Assembly (NCBI GenBank): GCA_019090895.1
Contig: JAHRVB010000121.1
Span: 10,513 to 74,512, forward strand
DNA: 64,000 bases
DNA from: Kangiellaceae bacterium
Lineage (GTDB): Bacteria > Pseudomonadota > Gammaproteobacteria > Enterobacterales > Kangiellaceae
Direction of reading: 5' to 3'
This document shows positions 804 through 51,936 of this stretch, one piece after another. The translations under genes were made by a program, and so were the position numbers. The notes below the pieces were generated by a model that worked only from the letters and a program-made list of their open reading frames with translations, was not told where the DNA came from and made no database searches. How positions within the stretch are numbered: the stretch's first letter is position 1; each line of letters begins with the position of its first letter.

Positions 804-1175
804 TCAATCCCTAATCTTATCCAACGTGTCTTGTCCCCAACCGATCAATTTATCATCGGCAAAAACCAGTGGAGTTGTCTCATCCCGCGTCGTATCGCCG
901 TCTGATCGAGTGTGTTGAGTGCGATAATAAAGCACACGAAAGGCTTTGCCATCTTTAGCAAACGCATCTGAGAATTCGGGGACACCCATTTTTTGAGCGA
1001 CGTCAGCTCGATCCATTTGTAACGACAGTTCGCTGATCATTTCTCGATTTCGCTCTTGCTTTGCTTGCCAGTCGCTACCAGACCATTTACCTTCTCCGGC
1101 TACAATGACACAACCGTTTAAGGTGATTACACTCACTGCGACTACGGCCAAATTACGTAACTGTTTCATTTTCAT
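804..1175 (-). CDS. Small lipoprotein, DUF3192-like
   Basis: Lipobox signal (VITLNGC). The C-terminal pattern FRVLYYRTQHTRSDGDTTRDETTPLVF..LIGWG matches my recollection of the DUF3192 family. Confidence 0.55.
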   Translation of the reverse strand: MKMKQLRNLAVVAVSVITLNGCVIVAGEGKWSGSDWQAKQERNREMISELSLQMDRADVAQKMGVPEFSDAFAKDGKAFRVLYYRTQHTRSDGDTTRDETTPLVFADDKLIGWGQDTLDKIRD

Positions 1176-1352
1176 TTTTCCTATTTCTGTTTATCAAAAA
1201 ACTAAAGATTAATGATGTAATCCCTATCGTTAAGCCTATTGTTAAGCCTTAGGTGATATACATACATACAACACCGAAACAGGATAGCATTATTGGTTAG
1301 ATAATCCAGAGATAAACTATTTCAAAGTATGTCTAGGCTTTCTTCTCGACAT

Positions 1353-1376
1353 AAAAAAAGACCCGTTAATGGTCTT
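1353..1376 (-). terminator. Rho-independent terminator downstream of the ECF/anti-sigma/DUF4097 operon
   Basis: The minus strand reads AAGACC-attaacg-GGTCTT followed by a T run. Confidence 0.5.
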
Positions 1377-1445
1377 CTTTTATGCCTACACTGGCAAACT
1401 TACCTCGGCATTTCGATAACTTAAATGCATTTAGAACTTGGCTTT

Positions 1446-2327
1446 TTATTTAGTTCTTACAAAAATATCCCCCCGGTAGGTATTAAGTAATAGTTTCTGC
1501 TTTCCACCATTAACCTTTGCTTGCATCGTACCACCAATGCTAATTTGTTGACGTTTGCCATCCTTACCTTTCTCTATTTTATCGACGCTTTGAAATGGCG
1601 TATCTAGACCCGAGTAAATTTCGCCTTCATAGTTTTTCACTTCAATTTGTGCACTCGATTTTTTAGGAATAGTGACATCAATATTGCCACGATGAACAGT
1701 CAGCGACGAAGGCTTTTCCAGATTGAAGGTATCGTAGATAACAGTAATGTTACTACTCGAGGACTCAGCAACAATTGAGCCTCTCACCCCCTTTGCTGAG
1801 AGTGGTCCGGCTGCACTCTCAATTTCGATACTACCATGCACATTATTCACAAATATTCCGTTACCGCGATTAAGCTCTAACTCAACATTGGTGTTAAAAG
1901 GTACTCTCAAGACTAGTTCAATGTCTTGGCGTCTTGCATGAGACTCTATGCTGACTCGATTATTTCTTTCTTCAATGTCCAAATTAACCATCGTTTTTTC
2001 CACTTTCTTTAATCCCTTGATAGAAGGTTTCTTTGGTGGAGTTTCATCCCTCATTCCTGTGTCAACTCTGACATCAATTCGTTCGTGCCAGAATTCATCA
2101 GTTTCCTTCGACAATTCACGAACAACCGCTTCAATTTCTATGCTTTTCCCTTTGTAGCCTTCAACTGTTATTTTCCCATGCATCAGAGAGACTTCAAGTC
2201 GAGCAGCTTTATCAGGATTGGTTAAAGTTAAACTGTGTGAAACCTTCTTTTCTTTAGCCTGAACTGAAGATAACACGACGATGTTTAATGTCAGTAATAC
2301 CACAATTGCTACAAAATACTTTTTCAT
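1446..2327 (-). CDS. Secreted beta-rich protein, DUF4097-like putative adhesin
   Basis: Signal peptide, and repeated HGSIEIES / RGSIVAES / RGNIDVTI / RGDIFV strand motifs. It lies downstream of a sigma/anti-sigma pair, as is usual for this family. Confidence 0.5.
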   Translation of the reverse strand: MKKYFVAIVVLLTLNIVVLSSVQAKEKKVSHSLTLTNPDKAARLEVSLMHGKITVEGYKGKSIEIEAVVRELSKETDEFWHERIDVRVDTGMRDETPPKKPSIKGLKKVEKTMVNLDIEERNNRVSIESHARRQDIELVLRVPFNTNVELELNRGNGIFVNNVHGSIEIESAAGPLSAKGVRGSIVAESSSSNITVIYDTFNLEKPSSLTVHRGNIDVTIPKKSSAQIEVKNYEGEIYSGLDTPFQSVDKIEKGKDGKRQQISIGGTMQAKVNGGKQKLLLNTYRGDIFVRTK

Positions 2328-2398
2328 TTCTAGTGACCTCTATTTATTACTTATGATGCGTTAACTAATTTAAATCGCAATTCAATGTTGATGCTCTT

Positions 2399-3211
2399 TT
2401 AAATAGTGTTGTTATTCTTTCCATTACTTCTATTGATGATGTCTTGTACTTCAGTATCCAAATTCTTATTAGAAAAAATAAGTTTCAGTTGTTTGTCATC
2501 CAATGCCGTTGAACTTTGCAGTAGTTCAACTAAGGCCATTTGAATTAATACATTTTCTTGCCGGCTTAAACTGTCTACAATCTTGTCTTTCATGTTATCT
2601 TGCGCACTTTGAGAGGCTAATAAATCCACCACTGAAAGTCTTACAGCACTAGAACGATCACTGTTAAGTAATCCAATTAACGAATTTGTAAGCTGCTCAT
2701 TTGATTGCCCTACCTCACGAGCATAATCGACACCGACCAATCTTTCGGCGGCAGAATCTTGCTTCATCATCGACAAAGCGACAATCACATTAAGCGTTTC
2801 AACTTGCTTCTCTAATTTCGATGCCTGAAGATTCTGTTGTTGCTGAGGTTCGCCATTCAATAACCACCCAGCGCCAAAAACAACCACTAATAACAACGCC
2901 TGAAACGCTGGTTGGAAAAGCCCTAGTCGAACCAATAAGGACTGCCTAATTTCTTTTTCTTTAGGCTTGATGTTCGATGCGTCTGCACTTTGAGCATGGC
3001 TTAGCATTTGATAAAACCGTGCTTGCATTTGAGCCGATGGTTGCTCATTCGAATCGAGCTCTGGTCTACTCCATATTTCTTCAATAAACTTAATTTCATT
3101 AGCGAGCGTTTCATCTTGCGCCAGTATATTCATCGCCTCAGATGATAGATTTTGCTCGCTATTTCCGTTTAAGAATTCGATTTTTTTCGAAATGATGTCT
3201 TGATGATTCAT
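2399..3211 (-). CDS. Putative single-pass anti-sigma factor with a helical-repeat periplasmic domain
   Basis: 4-nt ATGA overlap with the sigma gene. One TM helix (AFQALLLVVVFGAGWLL) and a leucine-rich helical C-terminus. Confidence 0.5.
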   Translation of the reverse strand: MNHQDIISKKIEFLNGNSEQNLSSEAMNILAQDETLANEIKFIEEIWSRPELDSNEQPSAQMQARFYQMLSHAQSADASNIKPKEKEIRQSLLVRLGLFQPAFQALLLVVVFGAGWLLNGEPQQQQNLQASKLEKQVETLNVIVALSMMKQDSAAERLVGVDYAREVGQSNEQLTNSLIGLLNSDRSSAVRLSVVDLLASQSAQDNMKDKIVDSLSRQENVLIQMALVELLQSSTALDDKQLKLIFSNKNLDTEVQDIINRSNGKNNNTI

Positions 3212-39416: not shown

Positions 39417-40499
39417 TTATAGGATCGCTTCGATGACTGACCGGTTTTTTCCCTGTTCTTTAGCCTGATACAAACAGTTATCAGCATGTTTATAAAAGTT
39501 TCCATGGGTGTATTTTACATTGGGAATAATATGCACCGCACCAATGCTAATAGTCAGGTCAATCTTACCTTCTTCGGTTTGAATGGGAGCATTGCTGACT
39601 CGAGAACAGATCGTTTTTGTAATCTTTTCGATAAAACCCAAATTAGGTTCAGATATTATTGCCGCATATTCCTCTCCACCGATTCTCGCAACAATATCGG
39701 CCTCTCGTTTGAAACTGCTTTTAATTATTTCCGCCACACTCTTAATCACTTGATCACCTACCGGATGCCCATAACTGTCGTTTACGGCTTTAAAATCGTC
39801 GATATCGATTAAGACCAGCCCAATAGCACTTTGACTTCGCAGATGGCTATTCCAATAAAGCAGTAATGATTCATCGAAAAACCGGCGATTGTAGATGCCC
39901 GTCAAACTGTCAATACGGGCAAGACGTTCCAGCTGTAGTCGCTGCTCAACTCGCTCGAGATACTCACGATTAAGAAGCTTAACTTGGAAAAAAGTAAATA
40001 CCATATAAATCGCAAGCATTATTGCTTCTACGCCTCGCTCTTGAGGAAGAACAAGCGCTGTTACCAATGCAGGGACAGTGATTACTATCAAAAAATAGTT
40101 TGCTAGTACACGATTAGGTGAGTAGGTGACTGCACCACCACTTATTAGGGCTAGGTTAGCCATTAATAAATAAATAAAAAGAGTGCTGTGCTCACTTTCT
40201 GCCATCGTTAGTGCGAATAAAAAACCAAAGACTAACGCTGGTCCTAAAGCGTTAAGGACTAATAAATTGTGCCAAAGCGAATGGCTAAAGGCCATCATTT
40301 TTTTCGAATATTTGTAGGCTAACAATCTGGTAACACCTAACACACCCAATATGCTAGCGATACTCCAAAACAATAAAGGTTGTCCTTGGTGATAATCCGT
40401 GGCGATACCGATCATCACCCAAGCGCCAAAATAAATATAGGCACCATTAACAGAGCGTTTCTCTAGGTCTTGTTCCATTTGTATTATTGGGGTCATCAA
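39417..40499 (-). CDS. Membrane-anchored diguanylate cyclase (multi-TM N-terminus plus GGDEF)
   Basis: GGEEY active-site motif with an RxxD I-site 5 residues upstream (READIVARIGGEEY), and about 6 hydrophobic helices N-terminally. Confidence 0.85.
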   Translation of the reverse strand: MMTPIIQMEQDLEKRSVNGAYIYFGAWVMIGIATDYHQGQPLLFWSIASILGVLGVTRLLAYKYSKKMMAFSHSLWHNLLVLNALGPALVFGFLFALTMAESEHSTLFIYLLMANLALISGGAVTYSPNRVLANYFLIVITVPALVTALVLPQERGVEAIMLAIYMVFTFFQVKLLNREYLERVEQRLQLERLARIDSLTGIYNRRFFDESLLLYWNSHLRSQSAIGLVLIDIDDFKAVNDSYGHPVGDQVIKSVAEIIKSSFKREADIVARIGGEEYAAIISEPNLGFIEKITKTICSRVSNAPIQTEEGKIDLTISIGAVHIIPNVKYTHGNFYKHADNCLYQAKEQGKNRSVIEAIL

Positions 40500-40814
40500 G
40501 CAGTTCCTAATCGTATACCCTATGCTATGCTATGCTTTACTTAAGTTAGCCTAACCAAGCAATACCACTAGATCAGTCTAATTATAGTACTTTTAGCAAG
40601 TCTTCCCATGATAAATTATTCAGCTTCCTGATGATGCGGTTAGCTTGTCTTTAAATATCTGATGAAATTCCTAACCGTTAACCAAATCATCCTCATGGAA
40701 GGTGGTGATTTTTAATACTTTAATCATTTTGAACCGAATACATCATAGCAACGACACATTCATTGAAACCACTCTAGATTAAACATTAAAAAGGTCGCAA
40801 AAAGGAAGATCAAT

Positions 40815-41207
40815 ATGAACTCAATAAAACTAGCTACTGTAACAATACTAATCCTACTTTTCTCAGTTTGTAATGCCAATGCGGCGAAAGAGAATCACGA
40901 TCGCTCAAAGTCACGTTTCAATCATCAATCGCCAAATAGTAATGCTTGTGTATGTACCAAGAAAAAAGTCTGCCCTAAAATAAAACCAAAGTCATCGATT
41001 TCACTAAAACCCGATAGCATCGGTTCTAAGGCGAGTGTAGAAGTACAAAAAGAAACTTGCTCTCTTCCAGTAGGACACACCGTCGGAATACTTGAGTCCG
41101 GTAATTCTCAGGCTACCCCACTTAAAGGTTCAACTAAAGTTTGCACTAGCTCGTCTAAGAGAAAAGTAAAGGAGCACAGAATAAGCTGTTGCTGTGACCA
41201 TTTATAA
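40815..41207 (+). CDS. Secreted Lys/Ser/Cys-rich small protein, unknown function
   Basis: Signal peptide (LILLFSVCNANA). 10 Cys in the full-length sequence (9 after signal-peptide cleavage), including CVCTKKKVC and a C-terminal ISCCCDHL. Confidence 0.45.
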   Translation: MNSIKLATVTILILLFSVCNANAAKENHDRSKSRFNHQSPNSNACVCTKKKVCPKIKPKSSISLKPDSIGSKASVEVQKETCSLPVGHTVGILESGNSQATPLKGSTKVCTSSSKRKVKEHRISCCCDHL

Positions 41208-41376
41208 CAAACAGGGTATTCACAGAAATCGGTATGCAGGAATACAATTTAGTCTCAAATTGCTATATATATAATGCTTTATCACAACAATGGGTATAAA
41301 GTGATATAATTGCATTCGAATGGATTCATCTACCCTCAAAACGCAAAAAATAAAACCTATCGCGGGAGTGTAAATA

Positions 41377-43425
41377 ATGAAATGTTCTTTTTTGTCAGCA
41401 ATTTTGTTGTGCACATTATTTACTTCCTCCTCAATACAATATTCAACGGCTGTACCTCTCGACAGTAAGACTTTTGATACTAATTCCCTAACAACTGACA
41501 GAATAAGTCTATTGCCAAGCGAGCAGGCTGAATTTAGACGACCTTCAGAACCATTAAAACTCACGTTCCCATATGAAAGGTTCACTGACCAAGAAGAATC
41601 AATCATCATAGAATTAGATGCTATTGATATAACATCTGTCATTCAACAAAATGGTGATGAAGCTACGTTTACGCCACCACAAGCATTGTCGGTAGGATCC
41701 CACGAATTAAGAGTCGTTGAATACACTGAAGAAGGTGACATTGAAGAATTAGCCTTTTGGGTGTTTGAAATTCGACAATCTAAACTGTTTGAACAATATC
41801 AATTAAGTGTCGATACACAACTTGCAAGTAACTATCAACTTTCAGAGAAAAACGCTGCCAGTACAAAAGCATATCAAGGACAAGCAGTGAGCCAAGTCGC
41901 TTTTAATGCAAGAAACGGTAGTTGGCAGACGGAAGGTCAATTCGATTTATTTTATGATAGCATTGAACAAAACCGCCCCACAGAACGGTCAATTGAAAAT
42001 AGCGACTTTTTGTTCTCAGTTGGAAATGATTATCACACTGCAAAAATAGGTCATCATAGCCCAGCTGTAACCAGTTTAGTTATGGACAATTTTAGGCGAA
42101 GAGGGCTTTCACTTGAATCTAAGTTAGCAAGTATCAGTTCGCGAGTTTCAGGATTTGTTTTATCCAGTCTGGATGTTTCTGGTTTGGGTAACGGATTGGC
42201 AATCAGTAACGCCACTCAGCGAGTTTCTGGTATGACAATTGACTCAAGCCCTTTTACAGAAGCCCCGCGATCTCTTTACTTGACGGCAACTTGGCTTTCC
42301 GCAAAAACATCGAAGCCTAACCAATTCTCCATCAATAGCAACAACTCACCCTACACAGGAACTGATGGAGACGCATGGGCATTAAGTGGTGAAAGTCTTT
42401 TATTTGACAGTAAACTAAGATTAAAAGCCGAGTATGCTGAAACCGACTACGATTTTGATGTGAATGATAATATAGAATCAGACAGTGATAAAGCTTACCA
42501 CTTCTTGCTCGCCTATAATGATGTAACCGATTTTGGCGTTGTCTGGAATGCCGGTGCAAGTACTCAAAAAATAGGTACTTTTTTTAAAAGCTCTGCCAAC
42601 CAGGGATTACCAAGCGACAAAAAAGCCACCAAAACTTTCGCTGGTGCGCAGTGGCAAACCTTTGGAGTTCAGGCAAATGTAGAGCGCCAAGAAGACAATG
42701 TTAACAACTTGTCGCAACTACCTCGAATTCAGACTGACTTGGCCAGCTTTAATTTCAATTGGTCCCCAACCATCGAGGATACAGGCTCTGTATTTGGGCT
42801 GCCAAGTTTAGTTATTTCCACTACCCACCAAAGCCAACTACAAACGTCCCGTCCCATAAGTTTCACTTTGCCAGAAGCAAACAGCGACGTTCAAAACTGG
42901 CAATTGGGTAGTCAATTTTCTTTTCAGCAAAACAGTTGGGGATTATCACTTAATGCGACAGAACTAGTTGACCGCAGCTTTATACAACCCCATAGCAAAA
43001 CTTACAGTATCGACTGGCATGCCAATTTATTCTTTGGTGAAGATTCGAATACTACATTGACTCCTTTCGTAGCTTGGAATGAAACCACAGATAAAATCAA
43101 TCAGACCAAGACACGTACAATGACCTATGCGCTTCAAGCCGCATTCACAATTGTACCCAATAAATTGAACTTCGCATTCAATTTAAACTGGAATAAAAAC
43201 AGAATAAATCAACATCTGTTGCATGATGATAATTTAGCTGCCAATGCTTCGCTTAGTTGGTACATCATCCAACCGAGTGAGAACGAATTTGGAGTCGATT
43301 TGAGTTTAAGTGGCACCTACAACGACTATGAAGATCAACTGTTTGTTCTAAACTCGATTAAACAGTACCAAACATTTTTAACCCTCAGCGTAATTCTTCC
43401 AACTCGAGCAGGGCAAGAACAATGA
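41377..43425 (+). CDS. Secreted protein with an N-terminal Ig-like region and a long beta-barrel-like C-terminal part; family not recognised
   Basis: GGGAG RBS and a signal peptide. The strand pattern is alternating and rich in Asn/Ser/Thr/aromatic residues through to the C-terminus (YQTFLTLSVIL). Confidence 0.5.
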   Translation: MKCSFLSAILLCTLFTSSSIQYSTAVPLDSKTFDTNSLTTDRISLLPSEQAEFRRPSEPLKLTFPYERFTDQEESIIIELDAIDITSVIQQNGDEATFTPPQALSVGSHELRVVEYTEEGDIEELAFWVFEIRQSKLFEQYQLSVDTQLASNYQLSEKNAASTKAYQGQAVSQVAFNARNGSWQTEGQFDLFYDSIEQNRPTERSIENSDFLFSVGNDYHTAKIGHHSPAVTSLVMDNFRRRGLSLESKLASISSRVSGFVLSSLDVSGLGNGLAISNATQRVSGMTIDSSPFTEAPRSLYLTATWLSAKTSKPNQFSINSNNSPYTGTDGDAWALSGESLLFDSKLRLKAEYAETDYDFDVNDNIESDSDKAYHFLLAYNDVTDFGVVWNAGASTQKIGTFFKSSANQGLPSDKKATKTFAGAQWQTFGVQANVERQEDNVNNLSQLPRIQTDLASFNFNWSPTIEDTGSVFGLPSLVISTTHQSQLQTSRPISFTLPEANSDVQNWQLGSQFSFQQNSWGLSLNATELVDRSFIQPHSKTYSIDWHANLFFGEDSNTTLTPFVAWNETTDKINQTKTRTMTYALQAAFTIVPNKLNFAFNLNWNKNRINQHLLHDDNLAANASLSWYIIQPSENEFGVDLSLSGTYNDYEDQLFVLNSIKQYQTFLTLSVILPTRAGQEQ

Positions 43426-44651
43426 AAATAATATACAATTTTACTGATTGTTCTGAAACAAGAACTAAATATCGGAACCGTTGTACTTCGTATAAATCCC
43501 GGTTATTAAAACTCACTTTAAGAGTTGTATTGATTTGTCTTTCGACCTTCAGTGCTTATAGTCATTCAACCATAATATCTGTACAAGGCTCCACTGCGCA
43601 GACGCAGCTTTCGACCATCGGTTCTGCACAAGTTCAATTGACTTGGTCTGTCGTTGAACAAGAAAACGCGATTGGACAAGCAACCATTAGTTCAACTGAA
43701 GGCTTCTTTTTTGACTCTTCACGCGAGATTTTAATCGGCCGTGACAACCGTTCTTTAATCATGAGCCAACGACTAGCAGAAGGAGCTAATACCAATTTCA
43801 TTTTCAGAGAATCGTTAGTTATTCCACGTAGCATTATGCACCAGGCGAATGAAATGGGACTAACAGAAATAGTATATGTTAGAGCATTTACAGATACACC
43901 TGGGAATACGACATTGTCGAATGCAGTAAGGTTTTCGCTTATTACGAGTGGTTTCGCAGGTCAACTGAAACTAACCTACATTCAAATGGAATTTGATAAT
44001 TCAAAAACATCAACCATCATTACAGCCGGTTCTCCACTTCATGCCCAAGCGCTTCTCAACTATAAGGGGAGTGGCTTAATAAGTTACGGTTGGGAAATTG
44101 CCACGCCACCGAGCACCAAAAACCAGCCTGTATTTAGTCCTCTCGTTCGCCGTCAACAATATTTAATGAGTGGTGGTCAGGTAACCATTAAATCACCTAA
44201 ACTTCCTTCAAGAAATCAAGGAAGTTATCTGCTGCAACTACGAATTACTCAACCGGAGTCTGAATTTAAGCTTCCTATTTTAAGATATATTGTTAGTGGG
44301 GGCCGTGGCAGTGAATCCAATATTGGTGTCGCTTCGATTCAAACCATTTTGCCATTAGCTAATCAAAAACTTGTACCTGAAACAACTTTCTCATGGAATC
44401 CAGTTGATGGAGCCAAAGCATATCAACTTGAACTCTACGACAGTCCAATTGTTTCAAATAATCAAATCGGACTGAATTCAGAAAAACCGATTACAGGAAT
44501 ACTAATACCTGCGAAAGAAACCCAAACAAAGATAGGTCGTGTGTCCCGCACCCATTTGCTCCAAGGAACTAGCTATTACTGGCAAGTCGTCGCCGTATCA
44601 GCAGAGGGAAAAATAATAGGCAAGAGTGAGCTTAAGAGAGTTAACTACTGA
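43422..44651 (+). CDS. N-terminally anchored/secreted beta-rich protein with an FN3/Ig-like C-terminal domain; family not recognised
   Basis: ATGA overlap with the upstream ORF. Hydrophobic segment VVLICLSTFSAYS, and FSWNPVDGAKAYQLELY...SYYWQVVAV. Confidence 0.5.
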   Translation: MKIIYNFTDCSETRTKYRNRCTSYKSRLLKLTLRVVLICLSTFSAYSHSTIISVQGSTAQTQLSTIGSAQVQLTWSVVEQENAIGQATISSTEGFFFDSSREILIGRDNRSLIMSQRLAEGANTNFIFRESLVIPRSIMHQANEMGLTEIVYVRAFTDTPGNTTLSNAVRFSLITSGFAGQLKLTYIQMEFDNSKTSTIITAGSPLHAQALLNYKGSGLISYGWEIATPPSTKNQPVFSPLVRRQQYLMSGGQVTIKSPKLPSRNQGSYLLQLRITQPESEFKLPILRYIVSGGRGSESNIGVASIQTILPLANQKLVPETTFSWNPVDGAKAYQLELYDSPIVSNNQIGLNSEKPITGILIPAKETQTKIGRVSRTHLLQGTSYYWQVVAVSAEGKIIGKSELKRVNY

Positions 44652-45259
44652 TGACTGGACCAATGAAAGACTCAAGTTCTAGTTTAAATGCACAATGCGT
44701 CAAGCATTCTATCAATCAACTCCAGTCGATTGCAGCCGGTGATGAAAAAGCGATGCGAGAGTTTTTTGAGGAAAACGCTAACAGCGTTTATCAATATGCG
44801 ATAAGTCGTTGTGGGGATAACAGTGTTGCAAATGATGTTTTGAACAACGTTATGATGGAGGTATGGAAGCATGCTGACAGATTTGAAGGTCGTTCAAAAA
44901 TATCAACTTGGCTAATTAGCATTGCACGATTCAAATTGATCGACTTATATCGCTCGGAAAAAAAGCATCTGCATAATGAGTTAGAAGATTGCATCGAAGA
45001 CCCTTTGGCCGTCAGTGAACAACTTGCTGAAGCGGCTCAACATACTAAGAGCGTCAAAGCTTGTGTAGATAGACTAGGCGATGTACACAAAGAAATTGTT
45101 CACCTCACTTTCTATTCCGATATGGCATACCCTGAAATAGCCCAAATAATTAACGTACCGGTTGGCACTGTAAAATCACGAATGCACCACGCAAAAGAAT
45201 CGCTCAAACGTTGCCTCGCTTCATTCTTAGGAACGGAGAATGACCATGTCATCATCTAA
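44651..45259 (+). CDS. ECF sigma factor
   Basis: Region 2 (NDVLNNVMMEVWKHADRFEGRSKISTWLISIARFKLIDLYR) and region 4 (EIVHLTFYSDMAYPEIAQIINVPVGTVKSRMHHAKESLKRCL). TGATG overlap with the upstream ORF. Confidence 0.85.
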   Translation: MTGPMKDSSSSLNAQCVKHSINQLQSIAAGDEKAMREFFEENANSVYQYAISRCGDNSVANDVLNNVMMEVWKHADRFEGRSKISTWLISIARFKLIDLYRSEKKHLHNELEDCIEDPLAVSEQLAEAAQHTKSVKACVDRLGDVHKEIVHLTFYSDMAYPEIAQIINVPVGTVKSRMHHAKESLKRCLASFLGTENDHVII

Positions 45260-45884
45260 CAATAATGGCAACTCAACTAATGATTTGGCTGACCAAGAAA
45301 AATTACTCCCTTGGCTGGTGAATGATACTCTAGAGCCTGCAGAAAAGGACGCACTGCAGCAAATATTGACTCATTCAGAGAAACTTCAGCAAGACAAAAA
45401 GGATTTGGAACATTTACGACAGCAAATCAAAGCGCAATCTAGACCAAACCTTCCAGTTGAGTTTGCCTGGCAAAAACTAAAAAGGCAAATAGACCGCGAA
45501 AAGAAAAAATCGAACAAAAAAAGTGTGAATAAAACATCATCCATTGCAACAACTAAATGGCGAATAACAGCGATTGCGGCATCCGCGTTATTGGCGATTC
45601 AGACCACCAGCATTATTACTTCGCTTGAAGAGGATACCTTTATTCCGTTATCTAGTGGCTTGCAAACGACAACGACCTATGCCCAGATTTTTACTGTCGA
45701 ATTTGTTGGAGCAGTCACCATGGATGATATTCACCAATTATTACTCAAACACCAATTATCGATTATTTCAGGCCCGTCATCAGCAGGATTGTATCGACTA
45801 GTCAGTCAAGAAAAATCCGATACTATTTTACAAACACTGAAAAACAACTCAAAGATAATTAAACATGTTCAAGTGGAAGAATAA
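45240..45884 (+). CDS. Single-pass anti-sigma factor without a zinc-binding motif, with a small alpha/beta periplasmic domain
   Basis: 20-nt overlap with the sigma gene. N-terminal LLPWLVNDTLEPAEKDAL anti-sigma-type helix with no H-x3-C-x2-C, and a TM helix WRITAIAASALLAIQTTSII. Confidence 0.6.
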   Translation: MTMSSSNNNGNSTNDLADQEKLLPWLVNDTLEPAEKDALQQILTHSEKLQQDKKDLEHLRQQIKAQSRPNLPVEFAWQKLKRQIDREKKKSNKKSVNKTSSIATTKWRITAIAASALLAIQTTSIITSLEEDTFIPLSSGLQTTTTYAQIFTVEFVGAVTMDDIHQLLLKHQLSIISGPSSAGLYRLVSQEKSDTILQTLKNNSKIIKHVQVEE

Positions 45885-47700
45885 AAATAATTGGTTTCAA
45901 AAAAGAAAAATCATTAACCAACTCGATTGGTCGATTACGGGATCTTCGGCAAAGTTTAGTTGTATTCGTTGGATGTTATATTGCGCCATAATTACATCGC
46001 TAAATGTTAGTCCTTTGGCTGCAACTAACACTACTCGTTCTCACGGAACTTCAACTCGCGATACTGATAGAAACCAGCCTCAACTATTGAACTACTCTCC
46101 ACAACCTTGCGTTCAAGCAGACAATTTGATGACACTTTCTGGTAAATCCCTGACCAACACAAGCTTTCTAGGTGATAACCTATCTCTCCATTTACATTTA
46201 GAACCTAGTAGCCAAAATTTTACTTTTGAACCTCAGCTGGTAGAAACACAGTCATGGACAGATTCCACCATTCGAGTCCTTGTACCACATTTCCTATCAA
46301 CTTCTCGTTCACAAGTTGTCGTCGCCCTACGTATTGTCAGCGGTAACGAGTGGCACAGCGAACCTATATCAGTCGCAATTTGCGCCACACCAACAACTCA
46401 AAATGATGTCGATTCAAAAAACCCATCCCAATCAACGGCCGAGCCTGATACAACTATAGAAGACCGTCCAGAACCAAAAGAACCAAAAAACGATGAAATG
46501 GCGCGCCGATTATCCCATCACACGAGCAGTAATAGTTTACTCAGTACAGGTTTACCACCACTGCCCAAATCCTTGATTATCCCAAAACGTCAAGACAATG
46601 AAGAGTTTGTTTTAAATGAAATAATCGCAGGTTCAGCCGATATGGACGAGGCTAAATCCTTAGCCAAATTGATGGGTAATTTTGGAGCTACGCTTGTTCG
46701 CCGTAAGAAGCTTTCTAATCTCAATTTGGTATTGAGTACTTTTAGGTTAGCTGCAAGCGCACAAGTATTGGAAGTGATTACTCAAATAAAATCACAACAG
46801 CCTCATACATGGATCGACGCAAATCATTTCTACCTTTCACAATCAGCAAACAAAAATACCACTAGGTCACCAGTTAAAGTTTCAGGCAACCGAAAAAGAC
46901 TATTTGACACAATCGGACTGAAATCGCCAAATGTATGCAAAAACAACCTATCCATCGGGATTTTAGACGGCCCAATTGATACCACGGCGTTATCACTAAA
47001 AGAAAAATCTATCGTGCAAAAGAAAATGTTCAGTCGTGGAAAGAAAGAAGGAATAAGTGACCATGCCACAGCCATTGCATCACTGCTCATTGGCAACACA
47101 CAATTTCCAGAGCTGGCCGGAGTCGTCAGTAACGCTCAATTATTTGTTGGTGTCGTCATGCAGCAGGACAAACAAAATAAGAAAAAAAGCGTCGCTACCA
47201 CTGAAAACCTAATTTTGGGATTAGATTGGCTGCTGAAGAAAAAAGTCCAAGTGATTAACTTAAGCTTAGGTGGACCTCGAAACGTGTTGCTCGAAATGGC
47301 GTTAGTTAAAGTACTCGCAGCAAAAGTAGCCGTGGTCGCTGCTGCGGGCAATGGAAACTCGAAACTCGAACAGATATTCCCTGCCGCTCAGCGAGGTGTA
47401 ATAGCAGTTAGCGCAATAGACTTCGAGTACTTCATCGCTAGAGAAAGTCATCAAGGGGATTATATTGACCTTACGGCACCGGGCGTTGATATTTGGGTAG
47501 CCTCAACAAACGGAAGTGCCCACTATCTTTCAGGCTCCTCTATGGCTTCGCCTCTAGTAGCCGCTGCATTGGCTCAACTTGGTGGGAAACCTTCTCTCGC
47601 TATTTCGCTATTTGATACAGCTCGCGATCTGGGAAAGCCAGGAAAGGACTCAACATATGGCTGGGGCGGTTTACAATTTCCGTCTTGTTCTACCAAATGA
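45865..47700 (+). CDS. S8 (subtilase) family serine peptidase with an N-terminal extension and a propeptide-like region
   Basis: Triad motifs IGILDGPID (Asp), DHATAIASLLIG (His) and SGSSMASPLVAAALA (Ser), with AAGNGN as the oxyanion Asn. 20-nt overlap with the anti-sigma gene. Confidence 0.85.
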   Translation: MFKWKNKNNWFQKRKIINQLDWSITGSSAKFSCIRWMLYCAIITSLNVSPLAATNTTRSHGTSTRDTDRNQPQLLNYSPQPCVQADNLMTLSGKSLTNTSFLGDNLSLHLHLEPSSQNFTFEPQLVETQSWTDSTIRVLVPHFLSTSRSQVVVALRIVSGNEWHSEPISVAICATPTTQNDVDSKNPSQSTAEPDTTIEDRPEPKEPKNDEMARRLSHHTSSNSLLSTGLPPLPKSLIIPKRQDNEEFVLNEIIAGSADMDEAKSLAKLMGNFGATLVRRKKLSNLNLVLSTFRLAASAQVLEVITQIKSQQPHTWIDANHFYLSQSANKNTTRSPVKVSGNRKRLFDTIGLKSPNVCKNNLSIGILDGPIDTTALSLKEKSIVQKKMFSRGKKEGISDHATAIASLLIGNTQFPELAGVVSNAQLFVGVVMQQDKQNKKKSVATTENLILGLDWLLKKKVQVINLSLGGPRNVLLEMALVKVLAAKVAVVAAAGNGNSKLEQIFPAAQRGVIAVSAIDFEYFIARESHQGDYIDLTAPGVDIWVASTNGSAHYLSGSSMASPLVAAALAQLGGKPSLAISLFDTARDLGKPGKDSTYGWGGLQFPSCSTK

Positions 47701-47896: not shown

Positions 47897-48571
47897 ATGA
47901 CTATTAAACAATTAACAAGCGTGCTATTTTTTACCATAACTTTCACCGCAACTTCAAGTTTCGCAGAGACAAACAAGCCGACTGTGGCGAGTAAAAAAAC
48001 CACAGCGACTGCAGCAAGTACTCGAGAAAAAGGTTCAGGAATGGCCACTGGAAGACGCTCCTACTCCCCTAGTTTGCATACCAAAGATGTTGATAAATCC
48101 TCGCCACTAGCAGCCTCGAATTATAGGAAGTGCCCTGACGGCACCATGATTAACCCCGGTGAAAAATGTCCAGAAAAAGCCGCAAAAAACGCGACTGGGT
48201 TACCTACAGGGAAACGTCAACATAAGCCACTTAACCTAAGGAAACGAATTGATAAAGCAACTCCGCTAAGTGCTCACGGAAAAGCGGGCTATAGACTTTG
48301 CCCCGACGGAACAAGGATAAATCCTGGAGAGAAATGTCCTGAAAAAACGGCTAGAGCAGTTGCAGGGAATTGCCCGGATGGATCGACCGTAATACCTCCC
48401 CAACGTTGTCACGAGAAACTAAATGCTAAGACTACCCAATGTCCAAGTACATCACCCACACGATGCATGAAGCCACCTACTCGTGCAGGATATCGACTCT
48501 GTCCTGATGGTACAAAAATTACTCATGGTCAAAAATGCCCAGAAAAAGCGAGAAAACCTGGCAACCGTTAG
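47897..48571 (+). CDS. Secreted basic repeat protein with five C-x7/11-C mini-hairpins
   Basis: GAGGAA RBS before ATG 47897 and a signal peptide (FFTITFTATSSFA). Repeats CPDGTMINPGEKCPEK, CPDGTRINPGEKCPEK, CPDGSTVIPPQRCHEK and CPDGTKITHGQKCPEK. Confidence 0.6.
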   Translation: MTIKQLTSVLFFTITFTATSSFAETNKPTVASKKTTATAASTREKGSGMATGRRSYSPSLHTKDVDKSSPLAASNYRKCPDGTMINPGEKCPEKAAKNATGLPTGKRQHKPLNLRKRIDKATPLSAHGKAGYRLCPDGTRINPGEKCPEKTARAVAGNCPDGSTVIPPQRCHEKLNAKTTQCPSTSPTRCMKPPTRAGYRLCPDGTKITHGQKCPEKARKPGNR

Positions 48572-48767
48572 AAACGGTTGTTAGTTTCTCCTTAACTCGT
48601 GATCTATCGACAACTTAGGATACGTATATTCAGTTCGTTTAGTTATCAAAAACCTCTCTATTGCCAATAAAACCCTCAAGTCCTGAAAAGATCGACTAAA
48701 CTTACAAGGATAGTTGCAAAATCTATGTGAACTAAAACCTAGCTTTATTTCTTTAGAGGTAAAATCA

Positions 48768-49124
48768 ATGGCAGTTCAGACTATGCTAATTGTCGACGAT
48801 AGTCGTCTTTCCCGTATGTTGGTTAAAAACTTTGTTCAAAAAGTCCAGCCCGATTGGAACTTCATAGAAGCTCAAGATGGCGATGACGCACTAAAAAAGT
48901 GTGAGGGGCAACCCATTGATTGGATGACCATTGACTACAATATGCCCGGAATGGATGGCGTGACTCTCAGTATCAAACTGAAGCTCAAGTTTCCAGATGC
49001 TCATATCGCTTTACTCACAGCCAACATCCAAGACAGTGTTAAAAACGACGCGGCTTCAATCGACATCGATTTCATTCAAAAGCCAATCACAGAAGAAAAG
49101 ATACACAAGTATGTCGGTGGCTAG
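48768..49124 (+). CDS. Stand-alone CheY-like response-regulator receiver
   Basis: MLIVDDS, phospho-acceptor context TIDYNMPGMDG, LLTAN and QKP. ATG at 48768 follows an AGAGGT RBS; the track start is an upstream TTG. Confidence 0.85.
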   Translation: MAVQTMLIVDDSRLSRMLVKNFVQKVQPDWNFIEAQDGDDALKKCEGQPIDWMTIDYNMPGMDGVTLSIKLKLKFPDAHIALLTANIQDSVKNDAASIDIDFIQKPITEEKIHKYVGG

Positions 49125-49128
49125 GTAA

Positions 49129-49743
49129 ATGAAAAAACTAACTGAATTTCAACAAGATGCAATTGCTGAGCTATTAAACATAGGCATGGGCTCGGCAGCA
49201 TCTTCACTGAGTGAGATGGTGGGTGAAACAGTAATTCTTTCCGTACCGAGTGTGGCGTTTTTACCACAAGATATAGCCGTTGGCAAAATCAAGGAGATTG
49301 TTGGTGATCGAATCACTGCAGTGCGTGAATCTTTTAAGGGCTCGTTTTGGGGGGACGCATTACTGCTTTTCCCTGCCAACCAAAGTTTTGATTTGGTCAG
49401 AGCACTATTAAAGGATGATAGTCTACCTCTAGAAATGCTCTCTGAGATGGAGCAAGAAGCGCTGACTGAAATTGGCAATATCATTCTTAATGCTTGTTTA
49501 GGTAGTCTAGCCAATATTTTTAACCAAAATTTAACTTACCAACTGCCAGTTTATTCTCAAGGAGACTGTGAAGAAGTAATGACTGGCAATAGCGGTAACA
49601 GCAAGGAAGGAATTCTTCTTCTTAAAATGGAGTTTTCATTGCAAGAAACTAATATCAGAGGTGCGTTAAGCTTGCTACTTGACGTCGATTCTATGGAAGC
49701 ACTTACAACTGAAATTACTAATTATTTCGGTGACGGCAGTTAG
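49129..49743 (+). CDS. CheC-family CheY-P phosphatase
   Basis: Two copies of the [DS]-x3-E-x2-N-x22-P motif. DAIAELLN is followed by 22 residues then P. EALTEIGN is also followed by 22 residues then P, with Glu in the first position. Confidence 0.8.
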   Translation: MKKLTEFQQDAIAELLNIGMGSAASSLSEMVGETVILSVPSVAFLPQDIAVGKIKEIVGDRITAVRESFKGSFWGDALLLFPANQSFDLVRALLKDDSLPLEMLSEMEQEALTEIGNIILNACLGSLANIFNQNLTYQLPVYSQGDCEEVMTGNSGNSKEGILLLKMEFSLQETNIRGALSLLLDVDSMEALTTEITNYFGDGS

Positions 49744-49755
49744 GTGGGTCTGACG

Positions 49756-51936
49756 ATGAAATCTAATAAGCAGTTAAATGAAGAATATATAGGAACAGAT
49801 AACGCTAATACGAAAATTAATTACGATGCTTTAGCTTATGGCATGATTGACTTATGCGAATTTGGGTTGGTTATATTAGATGAATCTAACCAAGTCATCT
49901 ATTGGAACCAATGGATGGAAAATAAGTCAGGTTCTTCTAATTTAAAAATAATAGGAAAATCACTTGATACAATATTCAAGAACAACAACTTTACCCGCTT
50001 AAATCGCTCAATAGAAGACGCTCAAAACCAAGGCATGTCTTCAATTCTTTCTCCTAAGTTTAACCCTCATGTTCTACCGCTCTATACGAGCGATAAAGAT
50101 CATGAAGATAATAAATTAATGTCTCAGATGGTGACTATTAAACCATTAGGGATAAGAGAAAAACACAGCTTCATTCAAATCGTAGATGTAAGTGCTGCGA
50201 GCGCCAGAGATAAATTACTTCGTCAACAAGCGATTTTCTCCAATAGACAAGCCCTGCACACTGAAGCGATTTTAGGTTCGATCTTCGATGCGGTCATTAC
50301 AACTGATGAAAACGGTCGTATCGACTATTTAAACCCAATGGCAGAGCAATTAACAGGATGGGACGCAGAGCATGCTAAAGGAAGACTCCTGGATAAAGTT
50401 TTTAATTTGACCCATCAGGATTCAAAAAATAAACAAGATATGATTCACCAGAGTTTAAAAAATGGCACGAGCTTCTCATCTTGCGACAAAGGCGCCAATC
50501 TTATTCGTAATGATGCCGTTCAGCTCAATATTGATTTTTCTATAGCGCCGATCCGAGATCAACAACATCTTAGTAACGGGGTTGTCGTGGTGTTTCGAGA
50601 TGTTACTGATGCCAGAATTCTTGCCGATAAAATCAGTTGGCAAGCTACCCATGATGCATTGACCAATTTATTTAATCGAAACTCGTTTGACAAAAAATTA
50701 TACTCTGTGACAGAAGACGCACAGAAAAATAACAGTGTGCATTCTTTGTTGTACCTCGATCTCGATCAGTTTAAGATCGTCAATGATACCTGTGGTCATG
50801 TGGCCGGTGACGAACTACTTAAACAAATCGCCGATTTACTTGAAATTCATATTCGGGACAACGATATATTAGCCAGGTTGGGTGGCGATGAATTTGGCAT
50901 TATTTTAACCTCTTGCCCAGCAAGTATCGCTTTACGAATTGCTGAGTCTATTCGACAATCAATACAGGACTACCGGTTTGGATGGGAAGAGAAATCTTTT
51001 GCCATTGGTGTCAGTATCGGCATCGTAGAAATTTCGGCGATGAGCGAAAATGTCGAAAAAATACTTGGGGAGGCTGACGCTGCTTGTTATAGCGCAAAAG
51101 ATTCTGGACGAAATCAAGTGAGTCTATATCAACCTGAAGACAGCGACGCAGCAGATAGACACGGTGAAATGGCATGGTTTAGTCGTATTCAAGATGCGCT
51201 TGATAAAAACAGCTTTCTCGTTTATGCCCAAACGATTTTACCCTTGAATAAAAAGGAAAAAAAGAAACACTATGAAATATTAATCCGAATGGTGGATGAT
51301 AATGGTAGCATTATTCCACCCGGTGCTTTTATTCCTGCTGCTGAAAGGTACGGATTGATGTCTTCGATTGATCGGTGGGTTATTGACAAAGTTTTTCAAT
51401 CGGTAAAGAAATCGAAAGAGCGATTAGAATGTGAACTTCCGCACTTTGCCATTAATCTATCGGGTGCAACTTTAACCGATGGTGAAACACTTGATCATGT
51501 GACTAAACAAATTCAGCAGAACGATATTCCTAAAGATATGATTACATTCGAAATAACTGAAACCGCTGCAATATCAAATTTGTCCGCCGCCAATTATTTC
51601 ATTAAGAGCCTGAAAGATACCGGTTGTCGATTTGCATTGGATGACTTTGGAAGCGGGTTATCGTCTTTCGCTTATTTGAAAAATTTGCCCGTTGACATAC
51701 TCAAAATAGACGGTGCATTTGTTAAAGACGTACATCGAGATGAAATCGATCGAGCAATGGTTGAATCAATCAATCAAATTGGTCATGTAATGGGCCTTGA
51801 AACTGTGGCCGAGTTTGCTGAAAATGAAGAGATTATTGCTGTGCTTGCTGACATAGGAGTTGATTATATCCAAGGGTATGGAATTTCAAAGCCACGATTA
51901 TTAATCGACCCACAAGGTAATTTTTTGCTAGACTAA
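49756..51936 (+). CDS. PAS-PAS-GGDEF-EAL c-di-GMP turnover protein
   Basis: RLGGDEFGII with an RDND I-site. EAL-domain motifs YEILIRM, DDFGSGLSSFAYL, KIDG and IQGY. AGGTGG RBS before ATG 49756 (a GTG at 49744 is also possible). Confidence 0.9.
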   Translation: MKSNKQLNEEYIGTDNANTKINYDALAYGMIDLCEFGLVILDESNQVIYWNQWMENKSGSSNLKIIGKSLDTIFKNNNFTRLNRSIEDAQNQGMSSILSPKFNPHVLPLYTSDKDHEDNKLMSQMVTIKPLGIREKHSFIQIVDVSAASARDKLLRQQAIFSNRQALHTEAILGSIFDAVITTDENGRIDYLNPMAEQLTGWDAEHAKGRLLDKVFNLTHQDSKNKQDMIHQSLKNGTSFSSCDKGANLIRNDAVQLNIDFSIAPIRDQQHLSNGVVVVFRDVTDARILADKISWQATHDALTNLFNRNSFDKKLYSVTEDAQKNNSVHSLLYLDLDQFKIVNDTCGHVAGDELLKQIADLLEIHIRDNDILARLGGDEFGIILTSCPASIALRIAESIRQSIQDYRFGWEEKSFAIGVSIGIVEISAMSENVEKILGEADAACYSAKDSGRNQVSLYQPEDSDAADRHGEMAWFSRIQDALDKNSFLVYAQTILPLNKKEKKKHYEILIRMVDDNGSIIPPGAFIPAAERYGLMSSIDRWVIDKVFQSVKKSKERLECELPHFAINLSGATLTDGETLDHVTKQIQQNDIPKDMITFEITETAAISNLSAANYFIKSLKDTGCRFALDDFGSGLSSFAYLKNLPVDILKIDGAFVKDVHRDEIDRAMVESINQIGHVMGLETVAEFAENEEIIAVLADIGVDYIQGYGISKPRLLIDPQGNFLLD

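Follow-up and report, generated by a model that had tools for sequence, protein, structure and literature searches.

A subtilase-prodomain-like domain on an anti-sigma factor and its co-encoded S8 subtilase in an envelope operon probably controlled by an ECF sigma factor

The DNA considered here is a stretch of 64,000 nucleotides (the window, in which all coordinates below are counted) from a Kangiellaceae bacterium (NCBI GenBank assembly GCA_019090895.1, contig JAHRVB010000121.1, positions 10,513 to 74,512 of the forward strand), and its region of interest is an envelope operon probably controlled by an extracytoplasmic function (ECF) sigma factor. The operon is made of two separable modules, namely a regulatory cassette (44651-47700) encoding the sigma factor, an anti-sigma factor and a subtilase of the S8 family, and a cargo that includes an outer-membrane beta-barrel and its immunoglobulin (Ig)-like partner. 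The periplasmic domain of the anti-sigma factor appears to be homologous to subtilase prodomains, as judged from profile matches of its relatives, an AlphaFold2 (AF2) model and a fold search. The co-encoded subtilase may dock on this domain and cleave the anti-sigma factor as its dedicated site-1 protease, a proposal built on homology and synteny to which we give only slightly less than an even chance. The broader picture, to which we give a somewhat smaller chance, is of a widespread cassette in which a decoy prodomain on the anti-sigma factor would be recognized by the subtilase and the protein cut between L and G/S of a Y-x-P-L-G/S motif; this would be a bacterial counterpart of the eukaryotic relay from Site-1 protease (S1P) to Site-2 protease (S2P), and in the present genome it would drive a 26-strand barrel/Ig complex. 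The original prediction for this region, made from the sequence itself, had taken the host to be a member of the Alteromonadales, but it is a metagenome-assembled genome (MAG) of the Kangiellaceae (order Kangiellales).

The anti-sigma factor is a single-pass membrane protein (45240-45884, + strand), identified from its AF2 model, from Foldseek comparison and from zf-HC2 and PF22148 matches in its relatives. An alignment-based search returned 45 of these relatives where a single-sequence, word-indexed search gave only 3 proteins, and an alignment of 13 orthologues contains an anti-sigma domain (LPWLVNGTL...), a transmembrane helix, a short linker and a C-terminal domain of about 68 residues that runs to the end of the protein. 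In the window protein these parts are a class-I anti-sigma domain at aa 12-95, seen as helices in the AF2 model, a transmembrane helix at aa 106-127 (nt 45555-45620), a disordered linker with the conserved motif F-I-P-L-S-S at aa 134-139 (nt 45639-45656), and the subtilase-prodomain-like domain at aa 147-214 (nt 45678-45881), which ends at the C-terminus. The zf-HC2 family matches 4 of the 13 orthologues (6e-10). The zinc motif H-x3-C-x2-C is kept in the orthologues of loci L013 and L015, and its H, C and C by 55-56% of 186 relatives; the window protein, with I, S and L in their place, is a non-zinc member of the class-I/ZAS type.

The relation of the C-terminal domain to subtilase prodomains was first of all a matter of profile matches. 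Pfam family PF22148 (Fervidolysin_NPro-like) was found in 3 of the 13 orthologues, weakly (E 0.001), and is precomputed for 5 of the 45 relatives, 3 of which also carry zf-HC2. Distant relatives exceed the Pfam gathering cut-off of 21 bits (P0078 with 45.7, P0120 with 24.9 and P0180 with 24.5 bits) and at the same time match the anti-sigma family profile at 1e-44 to 1e-53. When 33 diverse C-terminal domains were compared, 21 matched PF22148 and no competing family recurred. The AF2 model, computed from 39 sequences, gives the domain a pLDDT of 93-97 and a beta-alpha-beta-beta-alpha-beta topology, and the top Foldseek matches are the EpiP prodomain, the inhibitor POIA1 and the prosegment of subtilisin BPN', with rmsd values ranging from 2.3 to 3.1 A. 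The EpiP prodomain superposes at 2.3 A over 61 columns, the BPN' prosegment (1spb_P, 3cnq_P) at 2.4 A with a TM-score of 0.67 on the target, and the I9 inhibitor POIA1, taken from its complex with subtilisin (1v5i_B), has a TM-score of 0.63 on the target. The domain is therefore like the subtilase prodomains and I9 inhibitors (BPN', POIA1, EpiP, fervidolysin) in its fold and in the PF22148 matches across the anti-sigma family, and unlike them in two respects: it forms the C-terminal end of a transmembrane anti-sigma factor, where a prodomain would stand at the N-terminus of a protease, and it stops directly after its last strand.

The second line of evidence is gene order. An exhaustive profile search shows that the anti-sigma family is large, with 1,952 clusters (50% identity) at E<=1e-30 and 6,725 at E<=1e-10; proteins of the top 150 clusters are 184-275 aa long, nearly all of them 190-230, and match the profile from end to end. 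In the databases such relatives are labelled "hypothetical", "zf-HC2 domain-containing" or "RsiW/RskA". A carrier that can be cultivated is Methylophaga sp. OBS4 (WP_266327160). A metagenome scan seeded with the anti-sigma factor only yielded 80 further loci at 22-40% identity, which we regarded as testable for the S8 gene when they had at least 900 nt of downstream sequence and for the barrel gene when they had at least 4 kb of upstream sequence. In 51 of the 53 loci that could be tested, the next downstream gene on the same strand is an S8 gene, and an ECF gene lies upstream of the anti-sigma gene in 49 of 54, while the barrel is present in 12 of 24; the position of S8 is constant and all other neighbours vary. 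The contrast between 51/53 and 12/24 indicates that the subtilase is bound to the anti-sigma factor and not to the barrel. The link between subtilase and anti-sigma factor that the original prediction had suspected is thus upheld by the prodomain-like periplasmic domain together with this synteny.

The same figures bear on a more ordinary explanation, in which the subtilase is merely an output of the system: as a secreted or periplasmic protease it would mature or degrade the Cys-rich proteins, the barrel/Ig complex or an external protein, and the anti-sigma factor would sense an unrelated signal through a generic alpha/beta domain. Target genes are indeed common in ECF operons, on either side of the cassette are genes for Cys-rich and repeat-containing secreted proteins that have the same promoter motif, the fold of the sensor domain is a common one, and the NCBIfam models nearest to the subtilase are those of peptide-maturation proteases, all far under their cut-offs (mycosin, 76 vs 279 bits; PatA/PatG, 47 vs 421; QhpE, 46 vs 165). 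The synteny statistics nevertheless argue against it, since S8 stays next to the anti-sigma gene while the other neighbours are variable; such strict co-variation with a sensor domain would not be expected of an output gene, and that sensor domain consistently matches one Pfam family, which is a subtilase prodomain. We therefore consider this explanation quite unlikely.

The complete order of barrel, Ig partner, ECF sigma factor, anti-sigma factor and S8 subtilase was found in 12 further loci (L001/L002, L004, L005, L008, L013, L015, L017, L019, L020, L026 and the P0027 contig), with barrel identities of 26-50%, all in MAGs and mostly in those of marine Gammaproteobacteria, so the expected conservation of the five-gene order outside the source strain is borne out, down to 25% identity. 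In L003 the S8 gene is adjacent but divergent. On the other hand, L007 (a 3.6-Mb chromosome), L010, L012 and L014 have the barrel/Ig pair but none of the ECF, anti-sigma and S8 genes, and L023, L024 and L025 have the ECF/anti-sigma/S8 triad but no barrel; in these last three the anti-sigma and S8 genes overlap by 4 nt. Among the barrel loci the three genes of the triad are gained or lost together. Because each part is found alone, we describe the region as two modules, and the earlier view of the five genes as one indivisible signalling module does not stand.

The subtilase itself (45865-47700, + strand, 611 aa) is a precursor of the S8 family that matches PF00082 at 2e-25. It aligns to subtilisin BPN' and to intracellular subtilisins, and its catalytic domain (aa 360-601) has the Asp-His-Ser order of D368, H400 and S559 together with the oxyanion residue N496; the triad is invariant in 13 aligned cassette subtilases, all of which end with the catalytic domain. 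Upstream of it the protein has a signal peptide (about aa 37-53), an IPT/TIG-like domain (about aa 71-174, from the sequence pattern and a weak TIG match in the L026 orthologue), a low-complexity linker, and a prodomain-like segment of its own that ends in WIDANHFY (about aa 246-323, assigned by pattern). The extra, putative IPT/TIG-like domain after the signal peptide is a feature of the barrel-linked subtilases, and these also conserve a short motif, G-S-L-x4-L-P-x2-P (about aa 225-240 in the window protein), ahead of the putative prodomain. The conserved pre-catalytic segment of about 80 residues, which reads E-L-V-x-x-S...MDxAK...RR..L..LG.VLS.FRLP...WID.NH.Y in cassette subtilases, is a putative cis prodomain with an aromatic P1 end; it matched neither Pfam I9 nor PF22148, nor any entry of the PDB. 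A role in anti-phage defence was also considered and dropped, as PADLOC gave a generic subtilase match and nothing more.

Between the transmembrane helix and the prodomain-like domain, the linker provides a possible site for such a protease. In 186 relatives it conserves Y/F (73%), P/T (79%), L (71%) and G/S (82%) and no other linker position, and in the AF2 model aa 129-143 have a pLDDT below 50. Subtilisins prefer an aromatic or hydrophobic residue at P4 and a hydrophobic one at P1. Since the pattern (Y/F)-x-(P/T)-L-(G/S) fits this preference, it is likely to mark a candidate cut site for the subtilase, which in the window protein reads F134-I-P-L137-S138.

Taken together, we propose the following sequence of events. 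By homology, the ECF sigma factor is held at the inner membrane by the single-pass class-I anti-sigma factor, and the subtilase reaches the periplasm as a zymogen with its putative own prodomain. The mature enzyme, having shed that prodomain, would dock on the prodomain-like domain of the anti-sigma factor and, just as subtilases cleave prodomains, make the site-1 cut, likely between L137 and S138 of F134-I-P-L137-S138. A housekeeping RseP-type site-2 protease and cytoplasmic proteases would then free the sigma factor, which would transcribe from TGAACC-N16-CGAC promoters at 40730 and 47838. The regulated cargo would comprise a Cys-rich secreted protein, the barrel, the Ig partner, the cassette itself by autoregulation, and a repeat protein with Hcp-like motifs, and candidates for what triggers the subtilase are calcium, a ligand, or failed export or engagement of the barrel complex.

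Several results weigh against this proposal and keep it tentative. The window anti-sigma factor has no PF22148 match at any Pfam threshold, so that its link to the prodomains is transitive through the family. The Foldseek E-values are weak (0.02-0.1) with other ferredoxin-like folds close behind, and the fold is a common one. A profile search of the C-terminal domain against PDB sequences returned no subtilase prodomain and had the N0 domain of GspD as its best match (E 0.025), an identity that we set aside because Pfam and Foldseek agree on prodomains. The comparison of this domain with the putative prodomain of the subtilase by hhalign was not significant, and close paralogy of the two is therefore not claimed. 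The anti-sigma protein ends a median of 1 residue past the last strand (5 residues or fewer in 127 of 180 relatives), so it has none of the C-terminal tail that fills the protease active site in true prodomains; the domain may be a docking module instead of an inhibitor or a substrate. Docking of the subtilase on it is predicted from homology and synteny, the operon contains no gene for a site-2 protease, and control may run either way, from the protease to the anti-sigma factor or from the anti-sigma factor to the protease.

The last point can be developed into a reverse mode of control, in which the prodomain-like domain tethers, inhibits or chaperones the subtilase, and the bound subtilase in turn shields the anti-sigma factor from a housekeeping site-1 protease of DegS or Prc type. 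Once the subtilase is titrated by substrate or exported the shield would be lost, and sigma activity would report the absence of the protease from the periplasm rather than its activity. The homology and the synteny fit this arrangement equally, it is established that prodomains and I9 proteins bind subtilases tightly and act as their inhibitors and chaperones, and the overlap of stop and start codons points to co-production in stoichiometric amounts, as is seen for complexes. There is also a precedent in cell-surface signalling, where receptor binding to an anti-sigma factor is reported to protect the latter from proteolysis (PMC11637429). The arrangement is made less attractive by the same missing tail, which would be the inhibitory part of such a domain, by the cis prodomain that the subtilases appear to carry already, and by the conserved linker motif with its resemblance to a subtilisin cleavage site, and we regard it as unlikely, though not negligibly so. 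Cleavage of the anti-sigma factor by its co-encoded subtilase remains the reading that we prefer.

The cassette is completed by the ECF sigma factor (44651-45259, + strand, 202 aa), which matches Sigma70_r2 (PF04542, 1e-14, aa 38-105), Sigma70_r4_2 (PF08281, 2e-9, aa 135-185) and TIGR02937 (96 bits, cut-off 42.9). With regions sigma-2 and sigma-4 only and a length of about 200 aa, it has the make-up of an ECF (group IV) factor, and its closest solved structure is SigK (4nqw). All scores against the named ECF subgroups, including SigK/ECF19, SigW, PRK11924.3-1 and PRK12515, fall below their cut-offs, the best being NF008894 (158 bits, cut-off 258) and NF009168 (144 bits, cut-off 236).

At the level of the operon, five open reading frames (ORFs) lie on the + strand at 41377-43425, 43422-44651, 44651-45259, 45240-45884 and 45865-47700, with products of 682, 409, 202, 214 and 611 aa. 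Their junctions can be read directly from the sequence as ATGA at 43422-43425 (caATGAaa) and TGATG at 44649-44653 (cTGATGac), followed by 20-nt overlaps at 45240-45259 and 45865-45884 if the longest ORFs are assumed. The anti-sigma factor probably starts at ATG 45246, which cuts its overlap with the sigma gene to 14 nt; in favour of this start are a GGAG 7 nt ahead of it and the length of the public gene call, P0030, which has 212 aa. For the subtilase, Met37 (45973) could be an alternative start, directly ahead of the signal-peptide-like segment, but in other loci its start overlaps the anti-sigma stop by 4-23 nt. The original prediction had described the five genes as a co-directional operon chained by these overlaps, with a beta-barrel-like protein, a protein with an FN3/Ig-like end, an ECF sigma factor, a single-pass anti-sigma factor and an S8 subtilase with an intact triad. 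The coordinates and junctions agree with the sequence, the order kept in the further loci supports the operon, and the assignments of the sigma factor, the anti-sigma factor and the subtilase hold, as does the beta-barrel-like call for the first gene; the evidence on the first two genes is given below.

ORF1 (41377-43425, + strand) is an outer-membrane protein with a signal peptide, an N-terminal Ig-like beta-sandwich (aa 45-132, nt 41509-41772) and a beta-barrel (aa 140-679, nt 41794-43413) for which 26 strands were counted in the DSSP output of an AF2 model made from 24 sequences (mean pLDDT 79.6). It has no Pfam or NCBIfam match, and its relatives, all of them without a name, form 29 clusters (90% identity) among 5.8 billion proteins. 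Foldseek against the PDB returned generic large barrels only (ushers, MtrB, porins, TonB receptors and LptD), on which account usher, porin, TonB-receptor and LptD identities were dropped. Ushers had the top E-values (about 1e-7) but TM-scores of 0.26-0.36 and identities of 9-11%, and a chaperone-usher pilus system was rejected for these low scores and for the absence of Usher and PapD Pfam matches from the operon. The best TM-score for the barrel, 0.43, was that of MtrB. MtrB (with MtrA/C) and LptD (with LptE) share with ORF1 the predicted number of 26 strands and here there is likewise an adjacent, translationally coupled partner gene; they differ in that there is no sequence similarity, no haem motif in ORF2 and no LptD/OstA domain, and the TM-scores are too low for a common family. 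That partner, ORF2 (43422-44651, + strand, 409 aa), is an Ig/FN3-like secreted protein whose start overlaps the barrel stop (ATGA) and whose fn3 signal is weak and confined to the C-terminal end (aa 322-397). An ORF2-type gene lies directly 3' of the barrel wherever downstream sequence exists, and L005, L009, L010 and L017 share the ATGA-type 4-nt overlap. The barrel/Ig family is an unclassified outer-membrane system: as the original prediction had supposed, neither of the first two proteins can be placed in a curated family, and the fold search of ORF 41377 led to no well-characterised export or porin family.

A barrel with a periplasmic domain next to an ECF/anti-sigma pair brings to mind FecA-FecR-FecI, and it is conceivable that the barrel and Ig partner bind an external ligand and that the Ig-like domain of the barrel signals to the anti-sigma factor or the subtilase in the manner of FecA to FecR. 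The separate N-terminal domain, which is periplasmic if the strand number is even, agrees with this, and so does the fixed order of barrel, Ig partner and cassette in 12 loci. Moreover, 10 barrel-less cassettes adjoin a small outer-membrane protein of the Gcw_chp type (PF09694; L023 9846-10553, L025 9902-10633 and 8 metagenome loci), which suggests that the cassette is generally linked to outer-membrane proteins. However, Pfam and NCBIfam scans gave no match to TonB_dep_Rec, Plug, STN or FecR, and there is no TonB box; the barrel has 26 strands against the 22 of FecA, and the anti-sigma factor is not of the FecR type. The barrel/Ig pair is found without the cassette and half of the cassettes are found without the barrel, a modularity that argues against the FecA-like reading. 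With the promoter motif in front of them the barrel genes count as targets, though in FecA-type signalling the receptor is a target too. We give this analogy a lower chance than any of the readings above. In the cassette-less barrel/Ig loci L010 (505-2943) and L022 (1806-4612), a response-regulator-like gene lies upstream beside an ORF of about 600-720 aa, possibly a sensor kinase, and in L001 a ToxR-like Trans_reg_C protein (1046-3037) is found in addition to the cassette. Such alternative upstream regulators would fit a barrel/Ig pair that is a regulated output.

The promoter motif was derived by a dyad search of the regions upstream of barrel genes and reads TGAACC-N16-CGAC. When both strands of the window were searched, two perfect copies were found, both on the + strand, against an expectation of 0.08, and none of 100 shuffles reached two. 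The first candidate ECF-dependent promoter, P1 (40730-40755), lies 60 nt upstream of ORF 40815, and the second, P2 (47838-47863), lies 34 nt upstream of ATG 47897. All 12 loci that combine barrel and ECF genes have the motif, as against 1 of 11 barrel loci without ECF; it typically precedes the first cluster gene, or genes for secreted proteins further downstream, by 30-180 nt. In a further 80 cassette loci (420 kb) there are 43 copies where about 0.8 would be expected, and 41 of the 43 have the orientation of the operon. We infer from this distribution that TGAACC-N16-CGAC is the cognate promoter of the cassette sigma factor.

Because the only two copies in the window precede them, ORF 40815 (ORF0) is probably the first gene of the operon and the ORF at 47897 (ORF6) probably a member of the regulon. 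The transcription unit from P1 probably runs through ORF0, barrel, Ig partner, ECF, anti-sigma and S8 genes, and the single transcript of five genes that had been envisaged is accordingly kept as an operon, with a probable earlier start at ORF 40815 and a regulon that probably takes in ORF 47897. ORF0 (40815-41207, + strand) encodes a secreted protein of 130 aa that contains 9 Cys; its signal peptide (aa 1-24) was recognized by the hydrophobic N-terminus, and the profile scans gave no family match. Cys-rich secreted proteins (130 to about 630 aa, 9-12 Cys) are encoded directly upstream of the barrel gene in the window and in several other loci (L001 6039-7937, L007 8076-9944, L008 6790-8163, L009 4012-5713), and those of L001 and L008 are preceded by TGAACC-N16-CGAC. 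The gap between ORF0 and ORF1 holds two sigma-70-like matches (41219-41310, + strand), TTCACA-18-TACAAT and, with an extended TG, ATCACA-18-TATAAT, which by consensus may be a basal promoter.

ORF6 (47897-48571, + strand) encodes a secreted repeat protein of 224 aa, counted from ATG 47897, with P2 upstream and a terminator-like hairpin at 48558-48584. It has two Hcp-like segments, TG(K/R)RxHxP...DKxSPL, akin to the stretch TGKRQHKP...DKxSPL of Hcp, the tube protein of the type VI secretion system (T6SS), without being a full Hcp; short T6SS_HCP/TIGR03344 matches were obtained, and three CPDGTxIxxGxKCPEK repeats correspond to a 57-nt DNA repeat present three times. In L004 an orthologue of ORF6 follows the S8 gene and has the motif 37 nt upstream, and in the P0027 locus two Hcp-motif proteins follow S8. 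ORF6 could be a substrate of the subtilase.

Further copies of the motif are found inside genes. Within the barrel gene, in its 3' end and about 230 nt ahead of the gene for the Ig partner, a perfect copy occupies one homologous position in L003 (4117), L005 (7283), L008 (11541), L011 (4195), L013 (11679), L015 (11625) and L017 (11670), and also in L027, L034, L039, L044 and L082; the window has no such copy. This suggests a putative sigma-dependent promoter for the Ig, ECF, anti-sigma and S8 genes. The copies might instead be a coding artefact of a conserved L-N...D peptide, but the third codon varies (R, Q, L) and yet always begins with C, which gives a hint of selection at the DNA level. 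Elsewhere the first three bases of the motif coincide with a TGA stop codon, either that of the ECF gene at the ECF/anti-sigma junction or that of the S8 gene, as seen in several cassettes that are distant or have no barrel (L039 4940, L042 448, L046 4898, L085 4944, L094 4909; L058 7011, L072 2225). A promoter at such a junction would start inside the annotated 5' end of the anti-sigma gene, and either the starts are mis-called or the anti-sigma factor and S8 are expressed apart from the sigma factor.

The operon is flanked upstream by a GGDEF membrane protein (39417-40499, - strand) and downstream (48714-51936, + strand) by CheY-like, CheC/CheX-like and PAS-GGDEF-EAL proteins, which are of the cyclic-di-GMP and chemotaxis type of signalling. 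The barrel also has GGDEF/EAL genes as neighbours in L014 and on the P0027 contig.

How the proposed mechanism relates to known systems depends on the protease. The site-1 proteases known for ECF anti-sigma factors are DegS of family S1C, PrsW, signal peptidase of family S26 and Prc of family S41, with autoproteolysis as a further route, and regulated intramembrane proteolysis (RIP) is exemplified by sigmaE-RseA-DegS-RseP, by sigmaW-RsiW-PrsW-RasP, and by sigmaV-RsiV and sigmaP-RsiP with signal peptidase. The present system is like these in having an ECF sigma factor with a single-pass class-I anti-sigma factor and in the expected order of a site-1 and then a site-2 cut, and unlike them in that the proposed site-1 enzyme is an operon-encoded, translationally coupled S8 subtilase and the sensor is a prodomain-like domain; we know of no ECF anti-sigma site-1 protease that is a subtilase. 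In eukaryotes, S1P/SKI-1, an S8 protease of the subtilisin/kexin type, cuts SREBP and ATF6 before Site-2 protease does. S1P followed by S2P would be the closest functional analogy to the proposed mechanism: in both an S8 protease would make the first, luminal or extracytoplasmic cut in a membrane-tethered regulator, to be followed by an S2P/RseP-type cut. They differ in that recognition here would be by prodomain mimicry and the factor released would be a sigma factor instead of a bZIP or bHLH protein, and no orthology is implied.

The nearest published case is ECF54 of Actinobacteria, where genes for a subtilase, a carboxypeptidase and a CHAT-domain protein lie nearby and proteolytic control of the sigma factor has been proposed (PMC8999054). 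It shares with our system a subtilase conserved near the ECF sigma gene and the idea of proteolytic control, and differs in that it belongs to another phylum and has no anti-sigma factor, the proposed degradation is that of the sigma factor itself, and a prodomain-bearing partner is not described (PMC8999054). In the searchable full-text literature we found no account of a subtilase linked to anti-sigma cleavage, although a bare "Peptidase_S8 at +2" catalogue entry for some ECF group is possible, and subtilases go unmentioned in the main text of the ECF reclassification paper. The earlier statement that no known ECF system co-translates a subtilase with an anti-sigma factor is therefore retained insofar as no description was found, and qualified by the subtilases noted near ECF54 (PMC8999054). 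The cassette appears to be a new variant of ECF/anti-sigma signalling that is both widespread and undescribed.

For most pairs of ECF sigma and anti-sigma factors neither the site-1 protease nor the signal is known, whereas here the genome itself names a candidate protease. A large uncharacterised family of anti-sigma factors is thereby provided with specific predictions, which include a binding partner, a cleavage motif, catalytic residues and a promoter motif. The set of sigma factor, anti-sigma factor, protease and promoter is orthogonal and has potential use in synthetic circuits. The analysis also brings to notice an unclassified family of 26-strand outer-membrane barrels with an obligate Ig-like partner. 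If the proposed mechanism is true, it would add a new protease class and a new principle of recognition, prodomain mimicry, to bacterial transmembrane signalling, in parallel to the Site-1 protease of eukaryotes.

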